NCBI GenBank assembly: GCA_003971905.1
Contig: RSEE01000009.1
Coordinates: 124,001 to 188,000, forward strand
From: Moniliella sp. 'wahieum'
Taxonomy: Eukaryota
Length of the DNA: 64,000 bases
Reading direction: 5' to 3'
Made by a program: the position numbers and the translations under genes. Every line of letters begins with the position of its first letter. Positions within the stretch are counted from its first letter, which is position 1. Below, one piece after another: positions 9,356-61,884 of this stretch. The notes beneath the pieces are model-generated. The model saw only the letters and a program-made list of their open reading frames with translations. It searched no databases and had not been told where the DNA came from.

Positions 9356-10227
9356 GGGCCTCCCAGGGGCACACTATGTGCTAGCCACCGGCACCGGCCC
9401 CGCCCACGACCGGGGAACATTCGCCCCCGTCCACACCGTTTCCCGCCCTGCTCCGTCCCTTATCCCGTTCGCGCAGTTTACCGCGCAGCCCGGAGCGAGA
9501 TCCGCCGCAGTGCGAGGTGGTACGTCACGCGACCCGTCCCGCGCCAAGCTCCCCGCTGCAAGAGGGGGGGAGCGCGACCGGTCGCACGCAGAGCGCAGTC
9601 CTGGGCCGGTGGCACCGCAGCAAGGCCACCGGCACTTGTGTCGCCACCCTCGGCGCCGGTCCAGGCTGGTACTGCCTCGCCGCCGGGGCGGGGGCGGACG
9701 AGGAGGCAAAGAGCCTAGGGGCCCGGAGGTGCAGGAGGTTGCTCTGCCCCCGCGCCTGCCAGCCCCGCGCACTCGCTTCCCGCGCCCACGCCCTCGCCAC
9801 GCCCGGGGGGACGACTGAGGATGTGCATGTGCGCCGGGGCATGGTGGGTGGGAGGTAGATGTGGGATGGGGTGGAACGCTCCCCTCGCACGCTCTGTTGT
9901 GATGCAATCCCATATCCCATCTGCCCCTGTCACATGTCACGTCAGTATTCAGTGTCCCATGTCGCATGCCACATGTCAGCCTCAGCGCGCCTTCATCAAC
10001 GCTGAACGTTTCATCAACGTCACCGTTCAAGCCCCCATGCGCTAACCCTACGCTGGTCCGTCTGAGGTGCGTGGACCATGTCCCCATGTCCCCGCGGCCA
10101 GGCAGGCAAGCGCCTGTGCACGGATACGTCACGCGCCGCACCGAGCTACTCGCGCGCGGCCCACGGGAGGCTTTTCTTCCACCGGCTTATACACCCGCCT
10201 CTTCGCCACGCCCCTATCCTTCTTCTC

Positions 10228-10304
10228 GTCTGCCGTTTGCTGTCTGCTGTTTGCCGTCTGCTGTTTGCCGTCTGCTGTTTGCCGTCTGCTGTTTGCCGTC
10301 TGCG
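10228..10304. repeat. Heptamer tandem array (GTYTGCY) x11
   Basis: Alternating GTCTGCT/GTTTGCC units read directly. Confidence 0.9.
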
Positions 10305-10344
10305 TTCGCCTGCTGGCGTCCGCGCACGCGCACCCCTCCCCCCC

Positions 10345-11466
10345 ATGCTTTCTCTTCCTGGTCCTCTCAGCAGCGTCCTGTGCCACTTCCACGCGCACGG
10401 CTGTCGCACTGCCCGTCGCCGTGCGCGCCACTCGGCCCTCGCACCCCGCGCCCACCAGTTCTTCCGCACAGCCCAGCCGCGCCGTTCGGTCGGTACCGCC
10501 TCTGGGCGCCCGAGCTCGCGTGGGAGGGGCTCGTAGGGCTCCTGGTACGGTGCGCGTCCGTCGAGCTTGGACGCGGCGGGCGGATGGGGCAAAGTGGCGG
10601 CCAAGGTGGCGTGGGTGGCCGGTACCGCGCTGGTTGCGCAGCGGTTCTTGACCCGTGGCCAGCGGCAGGACGCATTTGCCTTTTCGCCGTACGTCAAGGC
10701 GTACCTGTCCGCAACGTGTACGTGGCTGGCCGCTGGCTTGGCCGTCGCGGTGGCCGGGACGGTTACCTGACCACGTCCGGTCGGGCTTTGCGTTCCGTCT
10801 GGTGCTGACCAAGCGGTGGGTGGGTGGGTGCGGGCCTGGCAGCGTCGATGGGCGGGATGGGGCGGGTGCGTACGGTGCCACCTGGCTGGGTGTCCAAGCT
10901 TGCGTGCTGCACGCTGTTCAACGCATCGCAAGCGGCGGTCCTGGGCCCGGTGGTGGTTGTCGGGCGTACGGGGCCGGCGCGGGCGGGACTGGATACGCTG
11001 GGTGTGGTTGGTGCGCTGGCGTAGGTGGGTGGGTGGGACTACCTCTGCCTCGGTGGCCCGGTCTTGGTTCGCGTGCCGCGTGTCGCGTGTCGCGTGTCGC
11101 GTGTCGCGCCCAGCTCGCTCGCGCCCCTCATCGTGCCCCACGTGGGTGCGCACCCTGGCGGCGAGAGAGATGCTGCGTCTGTCTGGCGGCCTTTTTGCTG
11201 TACGACACGCACCCCCGCCTCCAGTGCGCCGCCCTGTCGGACGCAGGCTTGGTCCCAGCCGACCCGAGCGTCCTTGCCACCCGTCAACAGCGGTAGCAAT
11301 AGCAATAGCGTTACCCCTTCCTCGCACCTCCAAGCCCATCGAAAGTAGCTGCTGGGCCGGTGGTACGTTACGGTGCGGTGCTAGCACTCTCGCGCCTTTC
11401 TCCTCCATGCATCTGCCTCAGTATGGGCTGTTTAGGTTGTTGGTCCATCTGCTTCGTGAAGCCTGA
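10345..11466 (+). pseudogene. Degenerate Bax-inhibitor-1 family / GHITM (MICS1)-like mitochondrial membrane protein
   Basis: Arg-rich presequence-like start. Segments YVKAYLSAT..LAAGLAV, SGFAFRL, GLAASMG, LFNASQAAVLGP, RAGLDTLGVVGALA*VG, YLCLGGP and LYDT follow the GHITM order. In-frame TAG at 11022-11024 and a (CGCGTGT)n array at 11070-11108. Confidence 0.65.
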
Positions 11467-12941
11467 AGCTTGGACCCAGGATTCTCGTCAGCACCCACGG
11501 AGAGGCAATATAGAGGGTGGACCGTGGCCATCGAATCGATGCTCGAGCCCCCGGCCTTGCAGGGGCCGGCGCGCTATATATTCTTAGTACCCGTGGCAGC
11601 CGACACGACGGAACGCAGGGACCGCTGGGACCACCCGGGCTAGGTGTGCGGGGGCACCATGGGCCAGACAGAGAGGGGTTACTAGTACTTGCTGCGTGCG
11701 ATCCGCCGGAGCGCTGGCAGAGGGGGCGGGACGGGGACGCTGCGGGGGCCCAGTGCCGTGCCTGAGGCCTGACACGGCGGGGCAATAGCAATCGCGCCTG
11801 GGGGGGAGGGGGGCATGCAGATGGAAATGTCACGTTGCAATGGGTGGCCACGCTGGGGAAAACGGGGGCGAAATGGGGGCACTGGGCACTGGCCCTTCTG
11901 ACTACTCAGTACTCGGTGGAACGTGGAACGTGGAACGTTGAACGTTGGGGACGTTGAACGTCGAGTGGATTCAGTACGTTCCCCTGTTCAGCTCGCAGGA
12001 GATGGGCGATGGAGGCCGGAGGCGGAGCGCTGCAGGCGGTGCCCCCGTCTCGCGCTGAGCCTGCTGCAATGCATGATGCACGATGCATGATGCATGACAT
12101 GTGACAATGGCCTGCGACTGTGACATGTGGCACGTGACACGGGGCAAGACACAGATCGGCCAATGCGGGAGGCATGTGAGCTGCAGATGGAGATGCTGAG
12201 GCAGGCCAGGGGTGGGAAGTGCAAGTGACGAGGCATGTGCGCTGCATGGCGGTGAGGGATTTGGGGTGTGCTTGCTTATTCGGGACTAGGCCTGCGTAAT
12301 AGTACGCGTCAGGACGCAGGTGCAGCGGCCCGCGGCGGCGGCGTGCGGTTGCGGTTCGGTTGAGTTGGAGCCCCCCTGCAGCTTAGCGCTTACAGCCCCC
12401 CGTACATCAAAACTGCGGCACAAGCGCCACACTGGCGCCCTGCCTGCTGCCGTTGGCAGGCCAAAGCGTATGCCCGTGGGCAGCAAAGCTTAGCGCTTGT
12501 GCTCGACGGGAGCTGCCGCAGCGGGCAGGCAGTGGGAATCGGGACGCGGTAATCGATAATCCCGCGCTGCACGGGGCGCGGGCGGCCGCACGCAGGACGC
12601 GAAGCGCACCGCACCCGCCAGTCTCGCGCCCAGCTGCCAGATCGACGCTCGGGCCGCCGAGCGGTCTGTGGGTCGAAAAAGCTTGGGCGTGAAGCTTAGC
12701 GTGAAGCTTGTTGAGGTGCTGCACGGGATTGGCATCGCAGCACAGCACAGCACAGTGCAGCCCAGCGCCAACGCTGCAGGGGGGGCGCTTGCAGCTGCAG
12801 GGAGCATGTAGATGCACAGCAGACACGCTTGGGCTCTCCAACGCGCTGTCTACTACTAGGCCGGCACACCTCCTCCCCCCCCCCCCCACCACCTTCGTTG
12901 CGCCCCCCCTCCTGTCCCGTCCGCCTGCCTGCGCGCCCACC

Positions 12942-15900
12942 ATGGGCCAGGCGCCCTCCCGCGCCCAGCTGCCCGCTGCCCAGCCGCCCCGCCCAAACAC
13001 AGCACGCCCCTCCGCCGCGTCTCCCCGCCCTCTCCCTCAGCCTCGCGCCCCCCCCCGTGCTTCCGCCCCCGCCTTCCACGCCGCCCGCCGTCCCATCGGC
13101 GGTTTGCCCCCGCCCGCCGCCCGCCGCCCCGCAACATCGGCCCCATCCGCACCCGCCGCCACCACCCCCGCCCCCGCTCCGCCCCGCCTCCGCCGCTGCC
13201 TCCGCCGCTGCCTCCGCCGCTCCCTCCACCCCCCATCCCAACCCCAATCCCCATGCCGCCCTCCCCCTAACCCACAGAGACCACCGCGTCTCCCCCATCG
13301 CCGAACTCGACGGGGAAGACAGCGGCCACCCCGGTCTCCGTGCCGCCTCCGCTCCCTTCCCTCTCCCTCGCCCACCCCGCCCCCACCTCGGCTTCCGCAC
13401 CGGCCTCCCCCCGCCGCCCGCCACCGCCTCCTACCGCACCCACGGTGCCCACTCGTTCCCCCTCCCCTCCGCACCAATTGCTTGCTTCGTCCATGCACCA
13501 CCACCATCAGCCCATTGGACCGACCTCGACACCCAAGGTACGTTGTTGGGGACCGATAACGCGTAACAAGAAGGCGTGGTCGTACTAACCCGTTTCCACC
13601 CCACTTTTCCCCCTCGCTCAGACTGCCGCGTTCGTCAGCGCAGGCTGACAGGCCTCCTCACCCCCATCTTTGGGCGTAAGAAGCACAGGAACCCATCCTT
13701 GCCTCTCACCCCGCCTGCCTCATGGAGCAACCCACCCCAGACGCGGCCCGACGCGTCCTCCGTGCCGAACGGGACCGGGTCACCGGTCCGACGCTCGCGT
13801 TCGCTCTACCATGTTCGTCCTGTGTCTGTCAGCGTGCCGGGGCGGGCAAGGGAACGCGCGCGCACGGCGCACTCGAGCCATACCAGCCCAGCTACTAGTC
13901 CGCAGGGCAGCTTCCGTGGGGGAAGCCGTGGCAGTCCGCGCCGCCGTCGTCGCAACAGTCCTGGCAGCAGCAGTCCTCGTCGCAGCCCGCATCGCGGCCC
14001 TCAACATAGTCCCCATCGCAGTCCCCGTGCCGACTCGGGGGGCAGCGCGGGTGGCCCCACGAGTGCCCCACGGGCCTTGCCATGGCCCAATTGGACAGTG
14101 CATCGGAGGAGGAGGGAGAACCCGGGTGGGATGCACTACAAGGCGCGTTGGACCCATCGCTTCGTCTCCCAGATCCCATGGTCACCTCGCTTGCATCCAA
14201 TTTCTTCTCATACCCCGCCCCGGGCTCCTCCACCCTCCCCCGCGCCAGTCCCAACCCCCCTCCCTCCCGCTCCCGGCCAGCTCTATCTGGAACGAACAGA
14301 GAGGAATCAGCGGCTCTTCACCTTGTCTCGCCAAACTCGGAGGGCCACAGCGTGGTCCTAGCCACAGCCAGAGTGGGGGACCGAGCTCCACACCAACTCG
14401 GGAGACATGCCCACGTTCAGTTTCAGTGGTTCCTCTACTGGCGCGGTCCATGTGACGGAAGACGTCACCGCTTCCATCGCCCCCCGGCTGGAACCAGGGC
14501 TGCTTCCTCCCTTTGGTAGCGAACACTCGTTCTCGCACGCTGGCAAGGACTGGCGGCAGGTCCGTATGACCGAGCGCGTACGCACGCTGCGTACGAAATG
14601 TACGTGCAGGCCATCCGAGGCGGCCCGCGACGGACCCGACCGCGCTTCCGACCATGGCGTGCCTGGCTGGGACAACAATGTTCCCCCACCTCCCAAGCGG
14701 ACGGGAAAGAAGGCATCCGTTATTGGTGTCAACCCCGCCCCTCGTCCTGCCCATCCTTCTCACACGGCTCCCATACCTTCCCTGTTGAACCCAACCCCCC
14801 GCCGGGAGACCAAGATGGACATGGACATGGAAACCCACACCGGTCCAGCCCGTTGCCTCCTGATCTGTCCCCGCTTACCCTCCCCCGGGAGGACCTTTAC
14901 CGGTGGTGCCGCACCAAGCGACCGGCTTGGTCTTTGCAGCGCGAGCAGCCCGAGAGCAGTACCAACTCGCGGTCCCCCACGTCGCCGTCTCGCACGCGGC
15001 ATACCAAGTCATCCCATCATCACAGCCCATCCTCATCCTCATCCTCCGTCCCAACCGGCCTCCGTCCGCATCCCCTCGCGGCTTCAGGACTTCAGCGCGC
15101 ATCGGTGCCGACTCAACTGCGTGCGCACGCGCACGCCCCCACTCCTGCTAGCCAAAGTCTGGCGATCGCGCTGGGTCTGGCGGACCAAGCCAGCCCCACC
15201 TTTGGCCCGAGCAAAAGAGGTGGAGGTAGAGTCGAGTGGCCACACGGACATTCTGTTTGACCGTGCGCTGGATCCCGCGCTGTCCCCGCTCAGTCCTGCG
15301 CGGAAGAGCATGATGATCGAACGGTCCGAGGTACCGTTAGCGGAGGGCGCGATGCAAGCCTCGCTCGTGGCGCTCCGAGCGCTGCAGATGAGCAACGACG
15401 ACCTGAGTCATGTCGGTGCGTTTGAACGGTTGATGGGCCATCCTCCGTCACTCCACCCGCTCCGATCTGACTCGCTCGCCGCCGCGCGCCAGCGTGCCGC
15501 CCCTTACACGTTGATCGCGCCCGACGGCAGGATCGCTGGACCCAGTTCGACCAGCCGCTCGTACCGCTCCAGCGGTCGGGTCGCTCTATCGCCTCGACCG
15601 CGACTGGCAACGAAGCGGGACGGGTGGTTCCGTCCAAACCGTTGGCCCACGGCATCTCGGTCACGATTGATGTCGGAACCTTTTCCACCACCGAGTTAGA
15701 GGAGGTGACGGCGCTGTTTGAGACGCTTTTGTCGTATCGGCGCAGCAAGCGACAAAAACAGCGCGCGAACCGCTTCAAAAGCAACCAAGTCGCACCGTCC
15801 GTCGCGCACCTCGGTCCAAGCGCCCGCCCTCGACTTGGAGGAGGAGGTACTGCTGACTTTCGTCGGCGGCTCGGGAACCGAACGGGCGAGCTGGAATCCT

Positions 15901-20295: not shown

Positions 20296-20799
20296 CTACT
20301 ACGCCTGGTGCCTTGAGGAAAAGGAATCGATTATCGTTAATCGAGCGTAATCGATAATCGATAATCCCAGACGCTATCCTATTAGGAAAAGCCGATGGCG
20401 TCAGCCCGGAAAAATGTGACAGCAGTCCGAAGAGTAGGCACTCTGCAGCACATTCAATCCAGGGCGCCCACATGTTCCCCGGAGCCTCTCCACAACCCGC
20501 TCGTGGAGGAAGAAAGGGCCCGGGAAACAGCAGGAAGAGCGGAGAGAAAGATGAGTAAACTCAAGCGTGTGCAACTGTATACCACATGTGGTATAGGATC
20601 AGGGCGTTTGATCCACCTTCAGAGGTGGAGGCGGACCACACCACTGCAGTAGCACACCTATCTTGAGGAGGAACTTGGGGACGGAGGAGGCAGAGATATG
20701 TTAGGACAGACCGCGCATGGCAGAGCCACGAGAGAAAACGTCCCCGTATATTACGGCTCTCTCTGTGGAGAATCTACACTTCATAACAGAGAGGCCCGT

Positions 20800-21627: not shown

Positions 21628-21703
21628 CGCGATCTAGAGATATACCGGAGCATATTAGCAGACTATCATGCCAGAATATACCCCACCTCCCTCGGAACTT
21701 GTG

Positions 21704-21789
21704 TACCCCCCGCAAGATGAACGGTTCGGTTTAGACGTAGCGTTCCCTCTGTCCCTGCCTTAAGCGCTAAGCTCTGTCAATGATATGGA
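21704..21789 (+). repeat. ~80-bp dispersed repeat, copy B (carries a +7 insertion)
   Basis: Same core; CCTTAAGCGCTAAGCTCTG where the other copies have CCTTAAGCT(C/G)TG. Confidence 0.92.
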
Positions 21790-22268
21790 TTCGAAGTCGT
21801 GCTTATCTCGATCATCAATCGCAGCCACTATGGGGCATCGTGTGCATCATGCCTCACTCAGTGGTATACCGATGTTACAAAAGTAGCCGTCACTTGAGGC
21901 CTGATGCCTGAGGTTGCGGAAAATGCGGGCACAAAACTATATATATCGAGCGAGGAGCTGTGCACAGTCTCGCAGTTGTTCCTAGTAGTAGAATAGGAAC
22001 GAGTCACAGGTATACACTCACGGTGTGTGCTGCTGGCACTGCATCTCCCCGCGATCCTCCGCATCCCTCCGCATCGACATCCCTCAGCACACCCTGCGCA
22101 CTCTACCCCAATCTCTCCCCCAATCTTTTGCCTTATTCATGTGAATGTGATCAGTTACTATTATTAGTCATCGGGCCAGTGGCCAATTCCGTTCCGTCGT
22201 CAGCGCAACAGCCTCCTCGCCTTCGCGTACTACTATAATTAAATAGCGGGTCTCACTCTCCCATCCTC

Positions 22269-25463: not shown

Positions 25464-26526
25464 TGCAGAAGAGAAGGGGAACAAAGGAAAGACCAACAGT
25501 TCTACAGCAAAAAGGGGAAACGAATCAAAGGGAAGAAGTGAGGACCAAGCACAAGAAACACGAGGTGAAAGACGAGGCGAGAAGGCCAATTACCAGGGGA
25601 ATCTCGCCAGTAATACTAGCCTTAGACCCGGTGGCCCCCTCGTCGATGATAAGATTTTGTATCTCCAGCATGGAACGGTACTAGAACGGTGAGTAATCGA
25701 TGCCGACATGCACATTCCTCTTGCCCCCTGCGGGACGCCGCTACCGCTCGAGAAAAATGAGAGAACCGCGCTTGGCCACGCCTCAAGCTTCACCAAGTTA
25801 AACTCCGAGCATATGGGCCAAGACCACACTTCCCCGTCGCCTTGCATGCTCTCTTGTCTTTATTTGGCTGTGTCGCATCATTGTCGCTAAGTCGTCCGCA
25901 TCGCCCTCGCTTGCGACGTCTGCGTCTTCATCGGACCCACATCCGGTACAAGAGAACGCAGCGTATGCTTCCTCTCAGGTCCAGCCCTTCACCGACCTGA
26001 CCTGCGCATTGTTCTTTCCCTTTCCTTTCCCTTTTCTCACCCTGATCTCTGTTCCTTTGGTTCGGTGGGAGGTGACTTGTCCACTTCGTTACCATCGACT
26101 TCGTCTCTGTCCACGAGTTGGCCATCGTTGAAGGAGACCCAAAGGTGTCCACAGGATCGGTGGGAGTGTCAGACTCACGCCGTGCTAGGGGGCCCTTGGC
26201 CCACTAGGCCCGTATGGGCACCATGGCGTGATTCTCATCAGTTGGGAGATCCTGTGTCCACCTCTCGACTGTGCCCCTTCCTGAGGAGGTACATATACCT
26301 CCTGTGCGTCCATAGATGTATGCAATCCATCTGCACCCTTTCCCCCATCTCCGTCTCCTGACAAGGTGGCGAGCAGGCTGGGGCGAACACCTAGCAGACG
26401 GCCCGGTAGTCCCTTGTGCCTATTAGTAGGTACGCTATTTCAGCGTCGCGGGTGGCCGTGCCATCGTCTCCCTAGTACGTTTAACAATTTATCTGTCGGT
26501 ATGCACAATCCCAAATTATGGCACAA

Positions 26527-29735: not shown

Positions 29736-32576
29736 GCCCACGAGGTGGTGGTAGCGCACAGGCCGTCGCACGCAGCTGCACCTTCGCACCCAGCAGCGCC
29801 TCGGCGTTATTCGGCGCAGTGCTGCGCTGCGGGTGGTGCCCCAGGCCCCGTCCCACACCACCCGCCCACGGCCCCCGTGCGGCAGCTGTCGTTGCGCAGC
29901 CCAGCGGCTCCCCGCTCAGGCGTCCCGCCGCGTGACGCCCATCGTCTGCGTGGGCTTCGATCGGCAAAGGAGGGTGCGGCAGGTGGTGCCGCACCGCGTC
30001 ACTGTCGATTGCGGGGGGCTGCCACTGCGACAGTGCCTGGTCTTCTCCGGCTGCGATCGGTGATCAGATCGATCAGCCCGAGGGACGAGAGACTGGTAGC
30101 GATGGTCAGTGATCGATGATCGATGAGCGTCATCGGATGATCGCTGACCAGTGACCGAGGACCGTCTGTGCTTCTGCTGGCGCTGCCTCTGCACAGCGCA
30201 AATCCAATGCCCCCCAGCCTGCATGTGCCACCTCTGCTGCATGCATGCGGCTTGGATTTGCACCTTGCATGGCCAGCACAATGCACTGCACTCGACCAGA
30301 CCCTTCTTGCAACCTGCCCAGCCCCCATCCAGCACACACCCCCCGCGCCCCTCGCTGGGGCACCACGCCGCAATTGAGTCACGCCAGCACGAGATGACCA
30401 AGATTCGAGCTGCCTTCCTCCTGCGTCATCACCGCGTCATCAGTCTCACATCTCGTGCCCCCTTTCACTCCCGCGATCCACCAGCGGCAGGTGAGGACGC
30501 GTGCTGGTGAGTTGTGGGTGCATGATGCAGGGCGCATGTAGGTGACTGGTGACTACTGACCGGTGACGCTGGGCGGGGGCGTGGTGGGGTGGCGGGGATG
30601 AAGACGGGGTGCGACACTGGTGCGACACTGGGCTTGGGGGCCGGTGTCGCGAGGTGGGGGTGCGGTGCGATGGCTCGCACCCTGGCCTACCAGGGCCTCC
30701 CAGGACCATCGGCGCCTTTTTGCGTAGCCACAGGTGCATAGGCGGCCTGTTGCGGCTGCAGCCTACGCGCGCACCAGAGGGAGGTTGAGGGCTCTCAACG
30801 TACTCAACGTTCAACGTTCAACACAACAACAACAAGGCTAGTACCGCTCGTGCAACTAAGCTCAGCACGCCTGCCGAAGTACAAGGACTACGAAGGACGA
30901 AGTGGTACGCATATCACCCAGGGCCCATGCAGGCGCGTGGCGCGTTGGGCGGCCCAAGGCGCACTTGGCTTGGGCATACTTGGGCCCACCCCTGCCGCAC
31001 ATCCTGTCCAGCCCCTCCATTGAGTCTCCGAATCCAGAACTTCTTTTTCGAGTGACCACTACTTGGCGCTCGCTTACCTCAGCATGCTATCGGCTCTGCC
31101 GCTCCTGCGCCTCGGATCATCAATCATCAATCATTGATCATCGATCATCAGGCCAACGCACCTAGGCTCGTCTCCCTACCAATGCATTCCTTTGCTCCCT
31201 TGGTAGTCACTCGTATCATCCGACTCTTACACACATTTTTTTATCCAGCCAGTGTCGATCGAGTCGATCCACTGTCGATGGTTGATATACCCCTTGTCTA
31301 TCGCATTCCGTTTTTCTTTGGTGTGCACGCAGCACTCGGCCCTGCCGTCACTCGTAGAACGAATAGCCCCCTCGGCTCTTTCACCGTCGTTATGTAGGCA
31401 GCGCGCAAGGCTTCATGGGGTCCTCCCCTCTCCCAATACAACACTTATGAACTCCGCGTGTTCGTTGTCGCCCCCACGGTGAGGCGGTGACTACTATAGA
31501 GATGATGTAGTGGTGAAAGGGAAATGAAGATCCCCCCAATCGTCGACATTGGCGCCATGTATCATGAATGATGAAGGTTTGGTTCATTTGGCCAAAAGGC
31601 CCCTCCGACCTCTCCATGTGCTACATTATGTGTTCAGGAGCCGTTCTGACGTTTCCTTGCTTCTTTCTGTGTTTTCTTTTGTTGCAGTACATACAAACAG
31701 CTGTTGTTGGACCCAGTGACCCCTTTCTTATGATGCACGAGTCCCATCTGCAGGGTAAACACAACGAATGGCCCAAAGAAAGGGGAGCTTACAAAGAAGC
31801 AAATGCGTGTGTAGTGTCCGGGACACATACGTTTCGAGAATAAAGAGGGGCGAAAAGACGCCTATAATACTATACGGACCTGAGAAGATGGAGAATGTTG
31901 AGCCATCAGGTGGCTCGTGCTTTGGCCAATGTCCCTTCAGTTCCTCCTCAGGCCTAGGAGTTCCGTTGTTTTTTCTCTCCTGTTTTTCCTTGTTCCGCAG
32001 CTTAGCCCCTGGTGGCGACTCGCTGCTTGATGTTCCTCTGTACGCGTTGCTGGTTGGCTTACACCACCACCACCACCACTAGTGCGATTATATCACCCTC
32101 GAGGACCATCTGGACTCCAGGTCTCATCAGAGAAGACGATTAAAACAGTGCTTCAGTTGGTTGTCTTGTGCTTCGTGCCGTCCATCAGGGGCTCGGGTAC
32201 ACTGCGATGTGATGTTCCAATTAAACACCTTTTGGATAATATTATCCTCTTCTCTGTGCTCTTCATGGCCATATTCGACACAGAGGCCACCGCCGTTCGC
32301 CCTATCTGACCAGTCCGCAGATGTGCCCTGCAAGCGCGGCCCGCATGCGCTGTGTCGGACAGAGGGGTTGAGGCTCAGTTTTCAGAATGTGGGGTGCCGG
32401 TGAGGGAGGAGGGGGGCCAGTTGAGAGGTCGATCTGGATGAGCGCCTCTTCAAAAGCTGCTCAAGCTCCTCAAGCCTTCAAGGTTCAATAGTGACGGTGA
32501 CCGGTGACCGGTGATCGCCCGCAAACAAAAAAAACACATTTCAAGGCAGGTGGTCATTTTATCTGACGCGTAGGCG

Positions 32577-34000: not shown

Positions 34001-34978
34001 CTCTTATGTCCTCTGCCACAGGCGCCTCCTGGCCTCTGGCTTGTCGTACGTCCTGCACTAGAATCTTGTCTTCATCGAGTAGAATCTATCTATCCATGCA
34101 TTTCCCCGAATCTTCAGGGGACTGAAGACAAAGAAGAATTGGCACTCGGTACTCAGTGTACTCATACCCATACTGGTCGTGCCTCACCGTATTGTCCACA
34201 ATGTACGAGCGCGATACGGGTCTTGCCTGTTATCGAAAGCGTCTCCAATCCCGGCACGCTCGTCGGTCCTGGTCACGGCCCTGAATGAGGCAGTCATTAA
34301 TCATTCTTCTCCATCAACGTCATCAACATTTCCGGGAGGGGAATGTCCATTGTCTGGATGGACTTGCGTCCAGCCGCGTCAGATCTCAGACTGGATGATG
34401 CTGTGGGCTGTCTTTCTGGCCCAAATGCGGGTCGACACAAGCATGCATCAGCAGGTGATCAGCGGGTGATCAGATCGATCAGCGCATGTGCCAACAAGTC
34501 ACTAGTCAGATCTCAGAGCAGGCCCATTTCAGAAGCACTGATATGCAAGGGCCCGCCAGGGCATGCAAGGGCGTGCATGCAATCTGCGCTGGTCACTGGC
34601 TCGTCCCATGCGTCACAATCCCCGACTCCAACACTCACACTGCTCTGGCGCCTTGCTTGCCAGCGGGCCACTGCCTCTGTGCGCCCCCCCCACCTGGCCG
34701 CCGGAAGGCGAGAGCAGAGAGCACCCTAGAGCACCCCGGCACAGCACGACACCTTGCCCACCCAGCGCCCATCCTGCTGCATTCTGCGTCTTTTGATATT
34801 GCCGCGTTGAGTCGTCACGCGTCAGAGTTGGGCTGGCCCAGTGCTGGCCCAATGCTGCCCCCCCCCCGAGCTTGCCTTCCCCTCCATCTCCACCTCCTCC
34901 AAGGCTCGGTCCCCCCTCAGCACTCGCCACCCGGTACTCAGGGCTGAGACGCAGCACTCACCACCACCCTGCGTGGCC

Positions 34979-40668: not shown

Positions 40669-43600
40669 ATGTCGACCCACAGCACCACCCCTCCCGGCCC
40701 GCCCGGGCGGCAGCGCAAGCGCCGTGGCGGCCGCAACCGCGAGCGCGACCGCGAGCCGCGCGCTCGAGTGGCGCGCACCCCGCTCCCGCTCCGTCTCCCA
40801 CGAGCGCCTCCCCCCCGAGTACGTCCGCTACTGGGGCGAGCGCCCGTCGCCGCCACGCGCCAGCCCACCGCTGTATGCCCGCGGCCGCTCCGTCCCGCTC
40901 GGCATGCCCCCTCCCTCGGCATCCATCCCGCTCTTCTCCCCCGGCACCGCGCCTCCCGTCCGCCCCCGGCATCGTACCCTCGTCGCCCCCCCTGCCCCCT
41001 CCTCGCAGGCGCTCTGGCGCTGGCAGGGGCCGTGGCCCCCCCCTCTCGCCAATTCTCTCCCACCGGACGGATCCCAGCCCGCATTCCGTCCTTGGGGTGG
41101 CGAAGTGCGCGAGCCACGGCCGTGGGGACGCCCCTTCCGCCCCCCGCCACCCAGCCTGCCTCTCCCTCCCTCTCCAGCCCGCCACCACGACACGCCACAC
41201 TGCTCCCGCGCCGCTCGTGGTCGTCGCAATCATCAGTCGAGGAGGGCAGGCAGAAGAGGACTCTTCCCTGCGAGGCGAGCGGGACTCTATCGCCTCTTCT
41301 CCCCGGCGAGCTGCACCGGTGCACATCAAGCAGGAAGACCTGGGACGCCCTGTCTGGTGGTGTGGAGGAACCCGGTCCTACCCCAACTGTCCCTGTAGCC
41401 GACGCGGCAATCAAGGTCGAGCCAGCTGTGGAGAACCTGAGCCTTTGCTCGAGCCAGGACATACCTCGTCAGTCGTTCCAGTGGAGGCTGTGCCCAATGT
41501 AGATAGGTCGATGCAGCTCCCGAGCCTGCCGAGTCTCGTCCAGCAAGCACGCCACCGCCTGCGCCTTCAGCTGTGCCTGCGCCTGATCCATCTTCCCAGG
41601 CTGCGCATGTGCCTCCGTCCAATCCTGAACCTGCGGGTTCTCCTATTGACGCCCCCCTCTGGAGACGAGGGAATCGTCTCCCCCAATCGTGGCCACACCT
41701 CTTGCACCTACAACGCCCGCCCCTCCTTTTGTGGATGGAAACGAGGTACCGCGGGAGGTTGCTGGTTCTACAGCGTCCACCACCGAAGCCACGCTCGTCC
41801 CACCCGCCGAGCCTGTGTCTTCAGTCGAGATTGAGACTGCATGCAAAACCACCAACCTTGCTCCCTCTCTTGACGCCGAGGGCCTTCCCCAGGATTCAGC
41901 TCCTGGTCATACGGAGCTCTCCCTCCCTACGGATCCCCATTTGTCGGAGCACATCCCTGAGCCTTCCGCCCAGACCGCCATCGAGACCAATACCGAATCC
42001 ATGGTACGTGCCTTCTTCCTCCATACTGTGGCAAGGAAACTGACCATTCACTTCTCATCAGATGCGCCCCAGCCTAAGGAAAACGCAGGCATGGAAAAAG
42101 TCGAGGCTGCAGCCTCCATGACCAAGGTCGTCCAGGAACCATCTCTTCCCCCAAGGGAAGGGACACAAGAGGCTGACATCCTGGAGATGAGAACACACAC
42201 GCCTCCTTTTCCTGATGCGCCCCCAGCCTCGGCCGTCGTTCCATCTTCGGTTGCGTCGCCTGCTTTGGTGCCATCACGTTCTGTTCCGCTCGCGTCTGCT
42301 CCGCAATGTCTGCTTTGTCGCTTGAGCCTGAGCCATCGGCTGCGCCAGCTCTTGTTCCAGAAAACGTCCGCTCGGATCAGGCTACGCCCGTCCTAGAAGG
42401 CCTCGCTCATCCTGCTGAACCTGCCTGTGGGAACAGTTTCTTTGGCCGCCACTCGTTTCGCCTTCCCCCCCAAACTGGACGCAGGGGATGCTGCACCGGA
42501 CAGTATATCTCCCCTCGTCACGTTGGCCAACCTGGCGGCTCAGTCGCCTACACTCCCTTCAGGTGTGTTCCCCCCACCCTTGGTGACCAACCCCTCAGCC
42601 GAGTCCGTCCCGCGTAGCTCCATTACTGGGTCAAACGAACCGGTCGAGGAACCCCCGACGGAGAACGGCGGCATCAATGGTCTGGGAGCCCATGTGGATG
42701 GGTCGATATCACCCAAGGAAGTCCCGCCGATCACAGAATTCAAAGCCACCTCCCTCGACTGCGCTCTCGGCTCCGGCTCCTGTGCCGTTGGATGCGGATA
42801 CCACCATCCCTTTGGAGTTCCCCCTCCAATTCCTAACTAGGACTGGGGCCCGTTGCCCTCAGCCTACGCAAAGAGGAGCCAACTACTCCCTCTCATGCCC
42901 TGAGTACTGATCTCCGTTCAGCCTGAACTGGCCGAGCCGGAGGCGATGGAGGTTGATCGTCCTGTCGCCGAGCACGTACCGGAAAGTGAACCCGCTGACC
43001 TCCCCGTCCAAGAGAGAAAAAGTTCGACCAACGATGTGGAGATGGGCGAGGCCGAAGCGGACCACCCTGACGAGGGTGACGTTTCTCCCTCAGAGTCGGA
43101 GGTGGAACGAAAACGGACCCTGCTGGAGCGCAACATTATGCATCGGCTCTCGGATCCAGTGAAGGAACGGAGAGAGGAGACTGAGATTTACCGTGTCAAT
43201 CGGAAGGTGGCAGAGTCGATGCATGACACCCTGATTGCCCCACGAGCCTTTCCTGATCAAGTCTACTTTGAAGCGGGTCCACTGTGGTTGGACATGAAAT
43301 CGGCCGAGCTGAAAGCGACCGAATTGGCCATCATGGAGCGTGAGGCTGCGACACAGCAGCGACTGCTCGACAAGGTGAGGAAGCTCAAGGAAGAGTACCG
43401 AGACTTGAATCGCAAGTGGCTGATCCATTGCCGCATGCTGGACGAGTGGAACGAGCGCAAGGAACGTGCCGAAGCAGCCGCCGAGGCCACATCTGCCCAC
43501 AACGAGCCTGAGCCTGTGGGCTCTGTGTCGGTCACTCCCATTCCTGGCAGGGCAAATCGGAGGAACAATCATCATGCTTCCCAGGGGATGGGACCGGGGG

Positions 43601-48903: not shown

Positions 48904-51900
48904 TAAGCGATCGGATATGGAGGTAATGGTCGTCTGATGAGGGGGTAACTTGAGGAGGCAAAAGAGAGGGAGAAGAGGAGCTCAGATGTGCAATGAAAAG
49001 GATAACAAAGTCTAAGCACGCCGGGCAATAGCATCAACTAAGACTAGCGTCTATGTGAGAGACTCTTGTCTGTATAGCTATTCGCGGCAGAATGCGCAGC
49101 GCAACACTGCTACCACGTATACCCCCCCAGCATATATTTCATGTCTACTGTTGCACTCGTCCGTTTGGGAATATGACCTGCCGGTGAGTACACAGGCACA
49201 CAAGGAAGGCGCGCGGTCACTAAGGAAGAAGAGCATCTACACACGTGCTCTTCTATACGCCATAGACGAAGTATTAGGGGCTCAGCACTGAGTCACTTAC
49301 CAACACTTCATGAACAGTAGAACATTCCTTTTAATAGTGACTTTTTGCTTCTCTTGCATATTAGAGGTGCCGCTAGTATTGCTTGCTGTTCTGCTCGGGG
49401 TCGGGACTCAGTCTCTGTGGTCGGCAACGATGCCGGTTATGGAAAGGCTAGAAAAGACGGGCGGCAGCGTCAAAGCCGCGCCTCATCGACCTCACCCTCA
49501 GCGCCATCAGTGGGGCAAAGTCTGATTGCGTCGAGTGTATAACTGACCGTATCATAGTCACCAACAGGCACTCAGGCGAGGCGCGAAAATGAAGATAAAG
49601 GTGTGGTGTAGAAGATCGCTAAATAGCTCGCGGGGGAAGCCGAGGCAACTAACGACGGAACTATTACGCACTAGAGGACCACCCGGGCCTACGGCCCGGT
49701 CAGGTGCTTGGTGCTTGGTGCTTGCTCGCCACCTCAGCCACCGGTCCACCTTCGCCACCTTCGCCACCGTTCCCATGGTAGGGTTAGGTGGATTTATAAC
49801 CCATGTGTGGTGCTGAGGCGAGTGGCTGGGCTACACGTGCTATTAGGTCAGAACTTGGCATCGAGCTCTCTGTTTTATTAAAAGGGGATTACGCGTTACG
49901 CGTTACGGGAGAGGATGAGTGTGCGATCCTCTTCGCCACACATTGTGCCGTGGGCCTTCGGCCCGCACCTCCACCAACAAACAGCGCGCAGCTGTGTGAT
50001 ATACTAGCCTCACATTTCACGCGCCTCTTAATACTACAGCACTTCTGTGATTACACATCACAGACAGCCATCACTCATTGATATTCTATCTGTCGAGAGC
50101 TGAGATTAAGATCTGAAGAGATCCCATTGCTCCTTTGTATGCCTTAGGCGGGATCAGGGGATAAATGCTATGCTCCCTGAGCCCGCTCAATACTAGGCGT
50201 TTGCTTCTCAGCTCCCATGACACCTTCACCAAAGGTATTACAGGAGTAGGCGAATGGGGTTGCTAACAGGGAATCAACTATGTGTTTTGGCCGTCTCCAC
50301 TGTGGTCTGAAAAATCGCATCAGATGTAGCGAAAGGATGCATGCGGATGTAGCGGGAGAATGCATGCGAATGAGCGTAATGAATACACATGAGCGATGAG
50401 TGAGATCTGAGATGCTTTCAACCTTCCTCTTCAAAATAACCTGCTATTTCCCACGGTCAAAAATCGACAAATTTGGTACTTAATATAGAGTACCCTTTTG
50501 CCTTTTGTCATTGGCAGAGAGAGACGGAGGGTGGAACAGATTTTGCGAGGATTTCTGGTATATACTTGACCGTATTTTTACGCAAATCCCGATAGCTCAT
50601 CTAATATCGGTCATCCCAACCTGTTTCCAATGACGAAGAGAACGCCTCATGAATACGGAATGACAAACTCCTGTTGACTGTGGTCCTTCGGCTCCCAACA
50701 GTCGGTAGACCAGGCTCGCCTCGGTTCGGTCGGCTTCCCCACTGCGGTATGGTCCTGGCGTGTGGTACTGTCTTCCTCGTGCCCTGCATTCTCTTCTGTG
50801 TGCTTCACTGGCTCCTAGTCTGGCCTCCTATATAGATATGCCTCTGGACCCAGACCCAACGCTAGCTCCAATCCATCACCTTCCCCTCATCTTTCTGTCC
50901 ATCCGGCTCCCTAGGCCAACAGCTTCCACTATATACAGCCTATATCAATATCCTTCACACCTTTATGTTTCAATCAAAACAACACTTTGGTCTCGAAAGA
51001 CTTGTATATGTTGCAGGCATTTGTTACGACCACAGATCGCGATCCCAGGAGACACGGAGGATAAGAGTATAAAAACAGGTCAGATGGCCAATTGGGATTG
51101 ATTGATTGTGCGAGTGAAACTACAGAGTAGCTGAAAAGAAGGGGGGAGGGAATGGAAGGTGTTGAGAAGAGAGGATAGACCAGTGCGCTCTCCGAGCCGA
51201 GTCTTAGTATAGAAAGGGGGGTGTCAGCTTCCAGACTTGCACCCAAGCTGGGCACGCAGGTACTAGCGACCGCGGGTGGAAGTGGCTGGGAGTGCTAGAG
51301 TCTGGCTAGGATGCTTTCAGCATACTGCACTACTACCGTGTCAGTCCCGACACAGGTTGTGCTTCGTGTAAATATCATCGATTGCCCCTCGCAAGAAGGT
51401 TCACCCGCTATTCTTCATTGAAGAGGATTCCTTCCACAAAGCCGACATTATCAAGACCGCCTCCCCCGATCCCTTTCTCGCTTTAAAATATACATCGCGT
51501 ATAATCTCTGTTCCACAATTGTGATAAAGGTTGGGAACCTCAGTGATGCCGTCCCTTGTGAGGACGGTGTTGGAGGGGTAATGACAATTGTTCGGGTGTA
51601 CTTGATATACTACGGTTAGTACTAGTAGTTGTGATCATTATCAACGCTGCATGGTGATTCCGGAGTGTAGCTTGAGGCCTTAATATGCACGGCGTAAGAA
51701 AGATGGGACAAGTGGGGCACCGAAGAAGATTTCTATCTCTTTGGCTGTAACACAGCTATCAGAGGGAAGTCGTATTAGGCATCACGTGTCACACAGGAAA
51801 GAAAAGACCGCCGGACGACACGTCCATCGTAGCATCGAAGGATCCCCGCCCTGACTGGCCCAATTGATCTCCCAGTCCCTCAGACCAAGGCCCGAGCGGC

Positions 51901-52215
51901 GTGAGTACGCTGAGTAGGGTTAGCCCATCACGCATCGAGGCGGTGGCCCCATGCCCGCACCAGCCGCCAGGCAGCGGGGCAGAAACCAGCTGATGCAAGT
52001 TCAAATTAATCAAGCAACACACCGCTGCCCCCCCCTGTCCCTCGGCCGCCTCCGCCCCAGCAGGGTTCTGTTTCGCAACCGATACGGCTATTCCCGCTTC
52101 AGCCGGAAAAGATGCTTTGTCGCCGTGTCCACGTCGCTGTCAACGATCTTCGCAGCACCAAGGTGTAGGCTGCTACCTTCTTCTCCACCAACCCCCTCCA
52201 TCCCTCCTCCCACCA

Positions 52216-56340: not shown

Positions 56341-57418
56341 ATTCTTTCTACCCTGTCCCACTCTGCTCCTAGTCTCCGGTGTCCAGGAGGCATCATAGTA
56401 GCCCTATGGCTCGCGGCAGGGCTAGATGCATCATGGCGGTGCCGGTGTGCGGCATGGTGGGGGAAAGGCAGCCCAAGGCGGAAGTATATTAAAAGACAAG
56501 GGCGGGGGATGAATCATTGTCGCCTTCACGAAAGACAGACGACGAGACATACCAGGCCCTAGACCCGCGATTCGGCCTGGGCACAGGGCAGACTCCGATG
56601 GCGGCGTGAGGCCTAAGCATAGCGGGCAGCGGCCAGCCGACGGGGGGCGAGGGGGTCAGGGGCCAGGCGAGGGGACGCGGTGGGTGCTGAGAGATGGGAT
56701 GGCGGGCGGCTGCGGCAAGCGGCAGGCTGCCCAGGCCGGCCGATATGCCGAGCACCTGGTCTGCACCAGTGCGCGCTTGGCCGGTGACCGGTGAGTGGTG
56801 TCGGTGACCGCCCGCCCCCCGCTGTGTGCACGCCTGCTCCCGCTTCAGCGCGCTGAGCGCTCCCCGCGGCCACCCGGCATCTGGCCTGTGTCTACCACCC
56901 ATGATGGACCCTGTGATGCATGATGTAACGACACAGGCGCCGTGCGGGGGAGCCACCCGGGCGCCACCCATCCCCTGTGCGGCCTGGGCGGCAGGGGGGC
57001 AGCCACCCGCCGCGCCGCCGCACCACGCCTGAGCGTTTTCTCCGACCACTTGCCCCTCTGCGTCGCCGCCGCCCCGCCCACATTCAGCGAGCCTGCTCAG
57101 GCATCAGCGTCAGGCATCAGCATCGTATCAGGCACGCTCTTCGCCCCGTCTGCTCCCCTCCTCCTCCGCCTCTCGCCTTCTCTTTGTCCTCCTCGCCCCC
57201 TGCCCCCTGCCCTGCCCCCACGCGCCCTGGCTCCTTGCTGGACAAGGCAAGGCCCCCCTCCCCGTGCTGCGTGAACATCCAATCCAGTGTTACAGCGTGA
57301 CGCTCCCCTCGACTTGATCCTTCGTTGCCCGCCCCCACCCTCGACCCACCGTCCATCTCCTCCGACCGCCCACCCTCTTTCACCTTTTGCTCTGGCCACT
57401 CCTCCCTCTCCTGCTGCC

Positions 57419-58973: not shown

Positions 58974-59715
58974 GTTCTACGTTATGGGCCGTACCGTACC
59001 GCGTGCTGGCATGCTACCTTTACGGTTCTCTGCTCTTCTCTGCCCCCGGATATAGACAGTTGTTGGTCCCCGGTCCCTTCCTTTTTTGTTACTGTTTCCT
59101 CATTATTACCAAACCTCCTCTCTGGTAGCCTTCATCCTCGACAGACTACCCTCTTCCGGTTTGGGCCTCCCGATGTCTTGGGCTATCTTCAATTTATATT
59201 ACGTTGGTACATCATGTTCCGCATAGCCGTCTCAAAGTTCCTTTTGCACTCGCGTACCGATCGCCTCAGCTCAGAGCGCTTTTGCCGGTGGTGAGTAGTG
59301 CAGTAGATTTCGGCTAGGCTTCGCCACAGCGGGCCCTCTGTCACGTTCACGTTCACGCTGACACCGCCACTGTCACTACCTTGGTCTTAACCCTTCGCTG
59401 GAACGATATGAACATTGCTGCCCGCTTGACATGAGAGGTACTCCAGGTATCAACGCATCAGCCTTATAATCTGGTTGGTACCAAACGGCCCTTACAGGAA
59501 TTGGCCAGCGATAATCGATAACGCAAGAGGATGGCTTGTGGGGGGGGGGGAGGTAAAAAACAAGAATACAAAGCTACACGAAAGGGAAAAAGGGAAAGGG
59601 GAAAAGAACGGCACTGGTGGCGATAGCGGCAAAAATCCCGATACGAGGAAAACTGAGAGCAGCTGGATCATGATGGATGGGGGGGAAGGGCGGGACTAGG
59701 ACCTCGGCGCACGAA

Positions 59716-60455
59716 TCAAGCCTTGTAGTGCTCAGTCGAGTCAAACATCTTGCGGCTGTAGAGCGTGAGCATGGAGACAAAGTACAACTGAACAACTCGG
59801 GTTAGTACAGGACGGCTGGTCCAATGTTGCGCAGAGTCAGACGTACCTCCAACCCAGTCAGGATAACGATCAGACCCGACAAGCACCCCACCTGGGCCCA
59901 AATGAACTTGTCGCACAGTTTGGAGCTGACTGTCCGGTACGTGTCGCTTTGAACGCTCTGGAAGTCGGGTACGTTGGACGTATTCGCAGGGGGTTGAAGC
60001 CGAACTTGACAAGGCAGTGGGACGTGACCTTGTGGTGTTGCGCACCTCCCACAATAAGGAATATGACCGAGAAGAGCAAAAGGAGAAGCAGGGAAAGGCG
60101 TGGACTTGGAGGTAGAGACGAAAGATGCTCGGTCGCTCAGAGGAAATACCAGGACGCCCCCGCTTGCCAGACTGCCAGCAAGATGGCAATGATGCCAATC
60201 AGGTACTTGGTCCATGCCAAAGACACGCCCGAGAGCGCTACAATTTCAGGAGGGCCAAATGCAATCCCGCAAGTAGCAATGCCCATGAGGAAGTTGAGGA
60301 GGAGGATGCCATAGGTACCACTGTTGAAGAGCGGCAGCGCCTGGAGTGGAAAAAGAAAAAAAAAAAAAAACGCGTCAGTTTTGCGTCCCGTCGGCGGGTC
60401 TGGAGCGGCCGAGACAGCAACGCACAAAGCAGCAAAAGTCAGTTGCACGGCCCAT
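59716..60455 (-). CDS. Conserved basidiomycete four-TM membrane protein; introns ~60341-60425 and ~59788-59845
   Basis: MGRATDFCCF|ALPLFNSGTY...PEIV...; C...F...LCDKFIWAQVG; LYFVSML; two canonical introns. Confidence 0.65.
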
Positions 60456-61884
60456 GGCGGATGGAGGTGAAGGCGTCGACTCGGATGCGGTGCGTGCGCG
60501 GGCCAGCGACGGTGGAGGCAGGCGAGGGAAAGGCTGGGAAGGCGGTGGTGGTGCTGGAGATGGCCGGGCACAGCGTTGGCCCGCTGAGCCGTGGACAGGC
60601 GGGGTGGCACAGGCGACACTGGTGATGTGCCTGAAGCATGGGCCCGGCCCATCCCCACGGCACACTGGCGCCCTGCTGGGGCTGGTGAACCGATCGTTTC
60701 TGCCGTCTGGATCGGCTTGGATCGGCCCTGTGTCCCCACCGAACCCTAGTGCTGGAGCTGTGGCTGCCCCCGTGCGACGTCGCGCGCCGTGCATGCATGG
60801 GCTTGCAATGCCTCGTCCCCGCAAAATGGGATGGATGGAATGGGGATTGCGAATCGGAACTTGCACGTGGCACATTCCGCCTTCCGACGCGCGGATGAGT
60901 GCCTGATTCCGCCGGCTAGTTGCACACTTGCCTAGTGGGTTCCTACCATAAGGTCCCTAGCATGTTTAACGTTTACACTGGGACACTCGCCGACAGCCAG
61001 CAACTCCCGACGCTCGATCATTGACCCATCATTGACAAACAAACCTCAGGTGCCCAGCCCATCTCAGGACCACAGAGGACATCTCCCTGACCGTGTTGGT
61101 CAGCAGCGGTGGCCCTGGGGCCTGAGGCCTGAGATCCTGAGACTTCCACTGGCCACCGTCAACTTATGACTCTAGTACCCAAGCTTCAACTGTTGCAAAT
61201 CCTCTCCAGCATAATGCTCTTGGAGGTCACCCGGTCACCAGCGGTCCCGGCCCACTAAAAAGTCGATACTCGAGGCAGAAGATATCCGACCTGTCCTTCA
61301 CACTGCTGTGAGTTATATACCCAGGGGTACCTCATCTCTCATCGACCCTCATCCATCCCTCACATTAGTAGTGCATCAGTTGGCCAATGCCACAAAGTAG
61401 CCGAGAAGCGATAATCGGTAACCGGCAGTAACTCTTCGATAACAAAAAACCACCTTAGTTGTGACGCGTGAACACCAGCCATTAATACCGTCCTCCCCTC
61501 GTTGCAACCAGCACGGTGAATGTGGAGCAGACGTGGATCCTGATAGCAGCTTGTGCCCCTACGCCCAAGGACGATGGATGAGCCGTCTCAACGATCGTGA
61601 TCAGTGCTGAGTATCTGCGTACCCACGTGATGCCCTCCTTCAACGGCTCTTATCGCGAGCGTCGGAGATAAGAACTGGCACTCTGTACACGGCTACAGAC
61701 CTCGTGTTTGCTGATGCTCAGCTCTGGAGCGATGAACGTGATGTGGGCCATCAGATGCATCAGACGCGCCCAACCTCTGACTCGTCCCTTTTGTCTTCCC
61801 CGCCACCTCCTTAAAGCAACCCCCGCCGTATCCCCTCCTGCAACATGGGCAACATCTTTCCTCACCTTCCCCAACCACAGCCCA

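Follow-up and report, generated by a model that had tools for sequence, protein, structure and literature searches.

What process writes short palindromes, each bracketed by two copies of one trinucleotide, again and again into the DNA between the genes of a fungus? The question is raised by a stretch of 64,000 nucleotides from Moniliella sp. 'wahieum' (contig RSEE01000009.1 of assembly GCA_003971905.1, positions 124,001 to 188,000 of the forward strand), which was analyzed over its full length and is called the window below; all positions are counted from its first letter. An initial annotation had pointed to 10-mers of the form TNA-XYY'X'-TNA, in which a 4-nt palindrome lies between two identical TNA triplets, and had read them as scars of a transposon that leaves hairpins behind. 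Our analysis leads to a similar view: the 10-mers are probably hairpin-type excision footprints of a cut-and-paste DNA transposon.

Enrichment and specificity of the scars

The motif was defined as TNA, a 4-nt palindrome, and TNA with the same N on both sides, and the 64-kb window, which has a GC content of 60.8%, was scanned for it with an overlapping regular expression. The scan returned 39 overlapping 10-mers, which merge into 34 loci (Table 1). At 26 of 26 positions listed in the initial annotation, the 10-mer given there was present, and 13 instances are additional to that list (13557, 20355, 30117, 30811, 32505, 34294, 34499, 34815, 39070, 40085, 42901, 49896, and 61462). Markov simulations of order 1 gave a mean of 1.5 such 10-mers and a maximum of 4, those of order 3 a mean of 1.2 and a maximum of 3 (n = 40 each).

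The palindromic middle can also be judged against all 10-mers of the form TNA-N4-TNA with the same N. It occurs in 39 of these 79, where chance would give 1/16. As a control for composition, we used 781,082 bases of unrelated metagenome loci (80 loci listed via the GCV_T protein, distant homologues with 37–51% identity), in which 34 of 504 middles (6.7%) were palindromic, corresponding to 2.8 per 64 kb; loci with a GC content above 55% contributed 6 of 117, a density of 0.7 per 64 kb. Other self-complementary cores showed no enrichment in the window (ANT 0/34, CNG 6/136, and GNC 8/192, versus 39/79 for TNA), and neither did palindromic spacers of 2 nt (5/16), 6 nt (0/41), or 8 nt (1/42). Perfect 10-bp palindromes of the type TNA-pal4-TN'A, with complementary N, numbered 0 in the window. 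When 6-nt palindromes were tabulated with one base on either side (N-pal6-N), only the A...T class flanked by T and A stood out, with 39 cases versus 1–13 for the other flank combinations. The excess of TNA-pal4-TNA is thus confirmed to be about 25-fold or more, and specific to the combination of a TNA core with a 4-nt palindrome.

Within this frame, the sequence varies freely. Of 16 palindromes that are possible, 13 occur, and the middle base can be any of the four, with usage roughly in proportion to the background; the reconstructed target displays, besides T and A, only a weak G at −2 and a weak C at +2. Among the 40 TNA-N4-TNA 10-mers without a palindrome, 28 are one mismatch away from one and 12 are two mismatches away, whereas the ratio expected by chance is 6 to 9. 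This excess of single mismatches implies that about 20 decayed scars are also present in the window.

Anatomy of the scars

The scar unit is a 5-bp direct repeat whose copies are separated by 2 nt, the separator being the inverted complement of the adjoining flank, and it amounts to a net gain of 7 bp. The commonest run of identity at period 7 is accordingly 5 (12 of 34 loci), and in arrays it reaches 12 (3 loci). The statement in the initial annotation that most scars show a 5-bp direct duplication holds for 33 of the 39 10-mers, with a chance expectation of about 1/16 per side. The repeat extends to the right (TNAXY) in 14, to the left (Y'X'TNA) in 13, to both sides in 6, and to neither in 6; in each of the last six, at least one side is a single base off the flank expected, and two of them lie in decayed arrays. 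The split of 14 right versus 13 left is what a two-fold symmetric process predicts.

The origin of the separator is equally regular. In 36 of 62 TNAXY pairs with a 2-nt spacer, the spacer is the inverted complement of the TNA-distal (XY) end of the repeat, and in only 3 that of the proximal (TN) end. A minor class, with 4 inverted-complement bases and a net gain of 9 bp, accounts for 3 of 20 pairs with a 4-nt spacer, versus about 0.08 expected (at 30062, 34468, and 61749). It extends the same inversion of the flank, as variable opening of a hairpin would. Two of these variants each sit in an identical 19-mer, GGTGATCAGATCGATCAGC, found at 30059–30077 and 34465–34483, 4.4 kb apart; the 19-mers either arose convergently, by the same scarring of identical short targets, or belong to a small repeat.

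Other conceivable products, namely TNATNA, 2-nt and 6-nt palindromic spacers, and two 4-nt palindromes in succession (1 case), are not enriched in the window. Simple duplications show no enrichment, with TGATGA at 12 versus 11.7 expected and TCATCA at 28 versus 20.1, as are their TNATN'A counterparts, with TGATCA at 17 versus 12.1 and TCATGA at 7 versus 5.8. A footprint made through flank hairpins should retain the target duplication and carry palindromic (P) nucleotides. Both features are found: the TNA is doubled in all 39 10-mers (by definition) and single in the unscarred paralogues described below, and P-nucleotides are represented by the palindromic middles (39/79), the flank complements (36/62), and the three 4-base variants.

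Polarity from a three-copy repeat

A repeat of 67 nt occurs three times in the window, at 21564 (copy A), 21719 (copy B), and 25400 (copy C). Copies A and C read CCTTAAGCT, with a single TAAGC, and copy B has the same sequence plus 7 bases, resulting in TAAGCGCTAAGC. Because the unscarred form is found in both A and C, the scar in copy B is a derived insertion of 7 bp. Moreover, the ancestral 7-mer, CTTAAGC, is not a palindrome, so that the GC in the scar is new sequence, copied as the inverted complement from the neighboring GC. The derived status is read directly at this one locus, and for the other loci it is proposed by analogy.

The full repeat unit measures about 95–155 bp and is arranged as two tandem copies with a spacing of 155 bp and one copy 3.7 kb away (21480–21860 and 25316–25540). 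A promoter module and an element fragment are candidates for its nature; here, it served as the source of the unscarred paralogues.

Avoidance of coding-like DNA

Open reading frames (ORFs) supported by Pfam cover 8,371 bases (13%) of the window and represent CUE, RRM, Bromo_TP, MFS, GRDP-like, DUF7788, MARVEL, GCV_T, and aminotransferase matches. None of the 34 scar loci lies inside them, for which the chance is about 0.008. A coding map based on GC periodicity was dropped as too insensitive, calling 10% of the window coding, and a codon-usage log-odds score trained on the Pfam-supported ORFs was used instead, with the 10th percentile of the training DNA as the cut-off. The median score was 12.2 for the training DNA, 1.8 elsewhere, and −3.0 for the scars, and only 5 of 34 scars exceeded the cut-off, versus 52% of the remaining window (binomial P of about 7e-6). 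The scars thus avoid coding-like DNA; the earlier assertion that all of them are non-coding is strongly supported by both counts, short of proof for each individual site, which would take gene models.

A hairpin-opening model for the 7-bp scars

We lean somewhat toward a specific version of the transposon reading, in which a 7-bp target duplication is combined with the opening of both hairpins at position +2. From the products, we infer all of its parts, that is, the insertion step, the 7-bp length of the duplication, the hairpins, and the identities of the nuclease and the transposase. The element would insert at T-N-A and duplicate 7 bp (abTNAXY). On excision, its transposase would cap both chromosomal flanks with fully paired hairpins, and a host nuclease of the Pso2/Artemis type would nick each hairpin at a point 2 nt 3' of the tip, generating 4-nt self-complementary 3' overhangs (XYY'X' and b'a'ab) along with recessed 5' ends that start exactly at TNA. 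End joining would then connect one overhang with the opposite flank at its recessed 5' end, the second overhang being discarded, to give TNA-XYY'X'-TNA or TNA-b'a'ab-TNA with a net gain of 7 bp and a 5-bp repeat on the side that donated the overhang.

The model accounts for TNA as the repeated part, since removing 2 bases at either end of 7 leaves the 3 central ones, and it entails equal handedness, the existence of a 4-base variant, and a scar that recreates a target open to further hits. Derived on paper for copy B, it reproduces TAAGCGCTAAGC base for base. An insert of 4 self-complementary nucleotides beside a flank that is itself unaltered is the mark of a fully paired hairpin that was nicked at a point 2 nt 3' of the apex. 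This is where yeast Pso2 and human Artemis are both reported to cut hairpins, and in yeast more than 95% of the repair of Ac/Ds excision hairpins is due to Pso2 (PMC3299998). Flank hairpins are left by MULE, hAT, Transib, and RAG alike, to be opened by host enzymes and sealed by end joining (PMC5499845), and the footprints of Ac/Ds consist of flanking DNA copied in palindromic form (PMC4561436). The central idea of the initial annotation, hairpin-type element footprints with P-nucleotides at a 7-bp nnTNAnn target, is the best-supported reading, backed by the derived +7 scar, the anatomy in 33 of 39 10-mers with its equal handedness, and the published cut at +2; of the families it named, canonical hAT does not fit in detail, and Transib does not readily do so.

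Several other geometries were rejected. A 3-bp duplication with hairpins predicts TNATN'A and simple fill-in predicts TNATNA, neither of which is enriched; retention of both overhangs predicts two successive 4-nt palindromes, of which the window holds the one case given above. On paper, a 5-bp duplication with symmetric opening at +2 yields a period of 5, which is not seen, and the canonical hAT geometry, a hairpin offset by 1 nt with a duplication of either 8 or 7 bp, does not reproduce the pattern.

The following points weigh against excision footprints with a 7-bp duplication. Only a single scar is polarized by a paralogue. For a product of end joining, which as a rule leaves mixed footprints, the scars are unusually uniform, and the product sequence on its own does not separate a 7-bp duplication from "5 bp plus 2". 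The window of 64 kb contains no transposase domain (Pfam, 280 ORFs of at least 110 aa) and no transposon with a TNA-centered 7-bp duplication (925 7-mer pairs), and its sole inverted-repeat element (24974–25246) has a 5-bp duplication, CGGAG, that lacks TNA.

Search for the element

The absence of a transposase from the window had been noted before, and our search of the 280 ORFs, taken from stop to stop, likewise yielded no transposase Pfam domain. One of the 925 TNA-centered 7-mer pairs has inverted ends matching at 9 or more of 12 positions, and it lies inside the three-copy repeat. Elements with terminal inverted repeats (TIRs) flanked by TNA-centered duplications of 7 or 5 bp, a check suggested by the initial annotation, did not turn up in the window, and a scan of the window for intact elements with duplications of 3, 5, 7, or 8 bp and inverted ends found the CGGAG element alone.

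This element is a foldback structure of 273 bp resembling a miniature inverted-repeat transposable element (MITE), with perfect TIRs of 14 bp, TGTCATAGTTTGGC, and long internal arms (24973–25046 and 25140–25247); with its flanks, it spans 24969–25251. If the outer TG/CA is left out of the element, the flanking CGGAG reads as a 7-bp CACGGAG. As its duplication is not centered on TNA, the element probably belongs to another family than the scar-maker.

Repeated hits and locus catalogue

Stripping 7 bp per scar from the sequence takes two rounds, which remove 32 and then 7 scars, giving 39 events. The seven second-round events agree with the earlier observation that several scars are iterated two or three times. 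Five of the seven are arrays of the same unit and can also be explained by slippage. At 34497–34517 and 12082–12106, units of opposite handedness stand on the same TNA, which marks them as independent events and excludes replication slippage there; the latter locus records three events at one ancestral site, with both handednesses. The loci are clustered on a scale of hundreds of bases, with 16 adjacent pairs within 500 bp versus 8.6 simulated (P = 0.0005), and show no clustering at 50 bp (2 pairs versus 1.1, P = 0.29).

Two period-7 arrays, at 11920–11965 and 30795–30822, share one unit (ACGT palindrome, TGA/TCA core) in opposite orientation. The first is made up of some five units that are partly mutated, and this suggests an origin of small minisatellites from scars by slippage. 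An inverted pair of 26-nt arms with 85% complementarity (9953–9978 and 12121–12146) lies on either side of the ORF region 10149–11417, and each arm holds a near-scar, a CATG palindrome with one mutated core end.

Table 1. Scars and scar clusters in the window, in order of position. Handedness is the side on which the 5-bp repeat extends.
Positions	Strand	Core	Palindrome	Description	Basis
9928..9940	.	TCA	CATG	5-bp repeat on the left	scan
11760..11772	.	TGA	GGCC	left-handed	scan
12082..12106	.	TGA	TGCA, CATG	compound: two TGCA units, then one CATG unit, all on the same TGA	scan, scar removal
12381..12392	.	TTA	GCGC	left-handed	scan
12550..12561	.	TAA	TCGA	right-handed	scan
13557..13567	.	TAA	CGCG	full 5-bp repeat on neither flank, one flank off by a single base	scan
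20348..20366	.	TAA	TCGA	three 5-mer copies; two events, or one plus slippage	scan, scar removal
21761..21772	.	TAA	GCGC	scar of copy B, TAAGCGCTAAGC	aligned paralogues A (21564-21630) and C (25400-25466)
21895..21913	.	TGA	GGCC	array; one substitution in the second unit	scan
25783..25792	.	TCA	AGCT	flanking repeat decayed	scan
30059..30077	.			+9 minor class: GATCA twice with 4 inverted-complement bases between; 14-nt scar at 30062-30075	spacer-4 pairs
30110..30126	.	TGA	TCGA	array of two units, with decayed ones after it (30138, 30145)	scan
30543..30567	.	TGA	CCGG	cluster; last unit (30557) perfect, earlier ones with one mismatch each	scan
30804..30822	.	TCA	ACGT	array; 5-mer three times	scan
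31117..31149	.	TCA	TCGA	cluster; 31138 perfect, three overlapping neighbors with one mismatch, 31120 with two	scan
32495..32514	.	TGA	CCGG	array; two events	scan, scar removal
34294..34305	.	TCA	TTAA	right-handed	scan
34379..34390	.	TCA	GATC	right-handed	scan
34465..34483	.			+9 minor class, second 19-mer copy; 14-nt scar at 34468-34481	spacer-4 pairs
34497..34517	.	TCA	CTAG, GATC	double scar on one TCA: left-handed CTAG unit and right-handed GATC unit	scan, scar removal
34813..34824	.	TCA	CGCG	left-handed	scan
36157..36170	.	TAA	GCGC	both sides match, a full 7-bp tandem copy	scan
39069..39081	.	TCA	CTAG	right-handed	scan
40085..40096	.	TTA	TGCA	right-handed; in GC-rich DNA with a coding-like score	scan, codon-usage score
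40480..40492	.	TGA	CATG	left-handed	scan
42900..42910	.	TGA	GTAC	flanking repeat decayed	scan
49889..49907	.	TTA	CGCG	array; 5-mer three times	scan, scar removal
50401..50413	.	TGA	GATC	right-handed	scan
56781..56794	.	TGA	CCGG	left-handed	scan
56914..56925	.	TGA	TGCA	right-handed	scan
59509..59521	.	TAA	TCGA	left-handed	scan
60964..60975	.	TTA	ACGT	left-handed	scan
61119..61133	.	TGA	GGCC	left-handed	scan
61461..61471	.	TGA	CGCG	flanking repeat off by one base	scan
61749..61762	.			+9 minor class: CATCA twice with 4 inverted-complement bases between	spacer-4 pairs

Genes in the window and the host

Among the 280 ORFs, 13 pieces have a Pfam match, and these fall into nine gene regions. The small number may mean that many genes of the region are lineage-specific or poorly conserved, or that many of the ORFs are artefacts driven by GC content. 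A long ORF region without Pfam support contains a tandem array of period 14 (10212–10309; unit approximately CCGTCTGCTGTTTG, about 6–7 copies over 98 bp). The gene for the T-protein of glycine cleavage (GCV_T) is split into three ORF pieces at 51924–53541, which identifies the DNA as eukaryotic. Among named matches, its product is closest to the proteins of Tilletiopsis washingtonensis and Malassezia (69% identity), followed by those of Ustilago (65–66%), and one contig protein matches at 87%. To judge from these matches, the host is a member of the Ustilaginomycotina outside Ustilago.

Alternative explanations

An element with a 5-bp duplication, Transib-like or hAT5-like, could produce the 5 + 2 + 5 arrangement if one hairpin were opened 2 nt from its tip and the other at the tip. 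Taken literally, the most frequent form of the scar consists of a 5-bp repeat and 2 nt, with a period-7 run of exactly 5 at 12 of 34 loci, and the 273-bp inverted-repeat element in the window does have a 5-bp duplication. The CGGAG of this resident element, however, contains no TNA, and in the scars the TNA would stand at one end of the 5-mer, so that a transposase of two-fold symmetry would face an asymmetric target. The extra bases are nearly always derived from the TNA-distal end (36 versus 3), so that an unexplained bias would be needed, and opening both hairpins at +2 predicts the period-5 product mentioned above, unlike what is observed. We therefore consider a 5-bp element improbable.

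Mutation without any transposon is another unlikely source of the scars: a host or domesticated nuclease acting at TNA, or template switching, would add 7 bp at hotspots. The lack of an element in the window and the very uniform outcome are in line with this, and so are the seven re-hits, versus about 0.8 expected by our own estimate for 39 events placed at random over 1,952 TNA sites. Domesticated hairpin-forming transposases do exist in fungi, as exemplified by Kat1 of Kluyveromyces lactis (PMC4763223). A lone hairpin-forming break, however, would add palindromic bases only, and duplication of the TNA requires a prior staggered integration; template switching by a fold-back with no loop is sterically unlikely and leaves the T-N-A specificity unexplained.

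A PIF/Harbinger-type element, with a 3-bp TNA duplication and an unusual repair route, has the target triplet in its favor, as PIF/Harbinger and mPing target TNA with any base in the middle (PMC4561436). Yet mPing and PIF excise precisely by way of 5' overhangs derived from the duplication, and imprecise repair keeps both duplications (PMC4561436), which would give the TNATNA that is not enriched here. With opening at +2, a 3-bp duplication would give TNATN'A, which is not enriched either, and the scars carry palindromes derived from the flank, whereas no simple route copies XY from outside the duplicated triplet. Such an origin seems very unlikely. Selected cis-regulatory or protein-binding motifs, finally, would suit non-coding sites that are probably promoter-proximal and clustered (16 pairs within 500 bp versus 8.6 simulated, P = 0.0005), but usage of thirteen different palindromes and of all four middle bases roughly follows the background, the structure is conserved and the sequence is not, the paralogue comparison reveals a plain insertion, and the roughly 20 excess one-mismatch copies suggest neutral decay, which makes regulatory selection extremely improbable.

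Implications

If the scars are indeed hairpin-type excision footprints, cycles of insertion and excision have written a few per mille of this DNA (39 × 7 bp plus about 20 decayed scars in 64 kb). Lying mostly near genes, such events would have shaped promoters and created new CpG and palindromic sites. The scars would also specify the missing element, namely by a 7-bp duplication, a T-N-A center, and a fully paired flank hairpin, and would provide a mechanistic reading for the unexplained 10-bp repeats of Ustilago maydis. They would further represent a nearly deterministic repair outcome in vivo, matching the cutting rule of Pso2 and Artemis in vitro, and hence a record both of past transposon activity and of how the cell mends breaks.

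More tentatively, and with doubt outweighing confidence, one may picture a single transposase that is or was active across the Ustilaginomycotina, with 7-bp duplications, a TNA target, and fully paired flank hairpins; it might be MULE-, Kyakuja-, or hAT7-like or a domesticated descendant. In that case, scars would be a major source of intergenic indels, at about one per 1–2 kb with hotspots of repeated hits, the 10-bp repeats of U. maydis would be explained, and the genomes would hold a natural, genome-wide record of Pso2-type opening at +2 followed by one-strand ligation.

Comparison with known systems

Footprints of hAT elements are usually heterogeneous. Zhou et al. are said to have placed, in 2004, the first hAT nick 1 nt into the flank, so that the element-adjacent base is complemented in the footprints. 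The scars differ from this reported 1-nt offset in that the terminal base is kept and then followed by its complement. They also differ in duplication length, which is 8 bp for hAT (PMC4763223) versus a period of 7 here, and thus depart from canonical hAT in both respects. What they share with footprints of Ac/Ds and other hAT elements is a retained duplication with inverted-complement flank bases, and in yeast the hairpins of these elements are opened by Pso2 (PMC3299998, PMC4561436, PMC3499496).

V(D)J coding joints and Transib, the RAG-type systems, resemble the proposed pathway in the fully paired flank hairpin, an Artemis-type opening at +2, and palindromic P-nucleotides. Transib differs by its 5-bp duplication, and a signal-sequence-like element is absent from the window; a 5-bp repeat is present in the scars, but it would need asymmetric opening and an off-center target. 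V(D)J joints differ in that the scars lack junctional diversity and a single product dominates. The Mutator-like element Muta1 likewise forms a fully paired flank hairpin, a 43-bp flank giving an 86-nt hairpin, but it duplicates 8–9 bp, and in yeast it excised precisely in more than 90% of cases (PMC5499845).

Duplications of 7 bp are known from two basidiomycete lineages, hAT7 of the Pucciniales (rusts) and Kyakuja, of the KDZ group, in the Agaricomycotina (Kojima 2025, PMC12730594). The likeness to the scars lies in the length of the duplication, as proposed here, and in hosts among the Basidiomycota (PMC12730594); these lineages are known from other subphyla and have no such transposase in the window. 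They nevertheless mean that a 7-bp element would not be exotic in a basidiomycete.

Taken together, the scars appear to be abundant and unusually uniform hairpin-type excision footprints, that is, of a known kind, in a lineage for which we found no description of them. Their anatomy, with a 7-bp duplication, opening at +2, and two handednesses, had no counterpart in the published descriptions we compared, a set that did not include Laurie et al. 2012 itself, and PMC4824034, PMC4081819, PMC8120014, and PMC5414199 contained no mention of 10-bp repeats. The closest precedent is provided by the 10-bp repeats of U. maydis, for which an origin as transposon footprints was proposed by Laurie et al. 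2012 (cited in Ali et al. 2014, PMC4081816), and 26 of which lie between the effector genes of cluster 19A (PMC4081816). U. maydis represents a different lineage of the Ustilaginomycotina from the present host (GCV_T 65–66% identical to Ustilago), and the likeness is one of description. In that description, the two agree: like the repeats of U. maydis, which are scattered between the genes of a fungus with few intact transposons, the scars are numerous, with 34 loci in 64 kb, 10 bp long, situated in non-coding DNA of a member of the Ustilaginomycotina, and read as footprints (PMC4081816).

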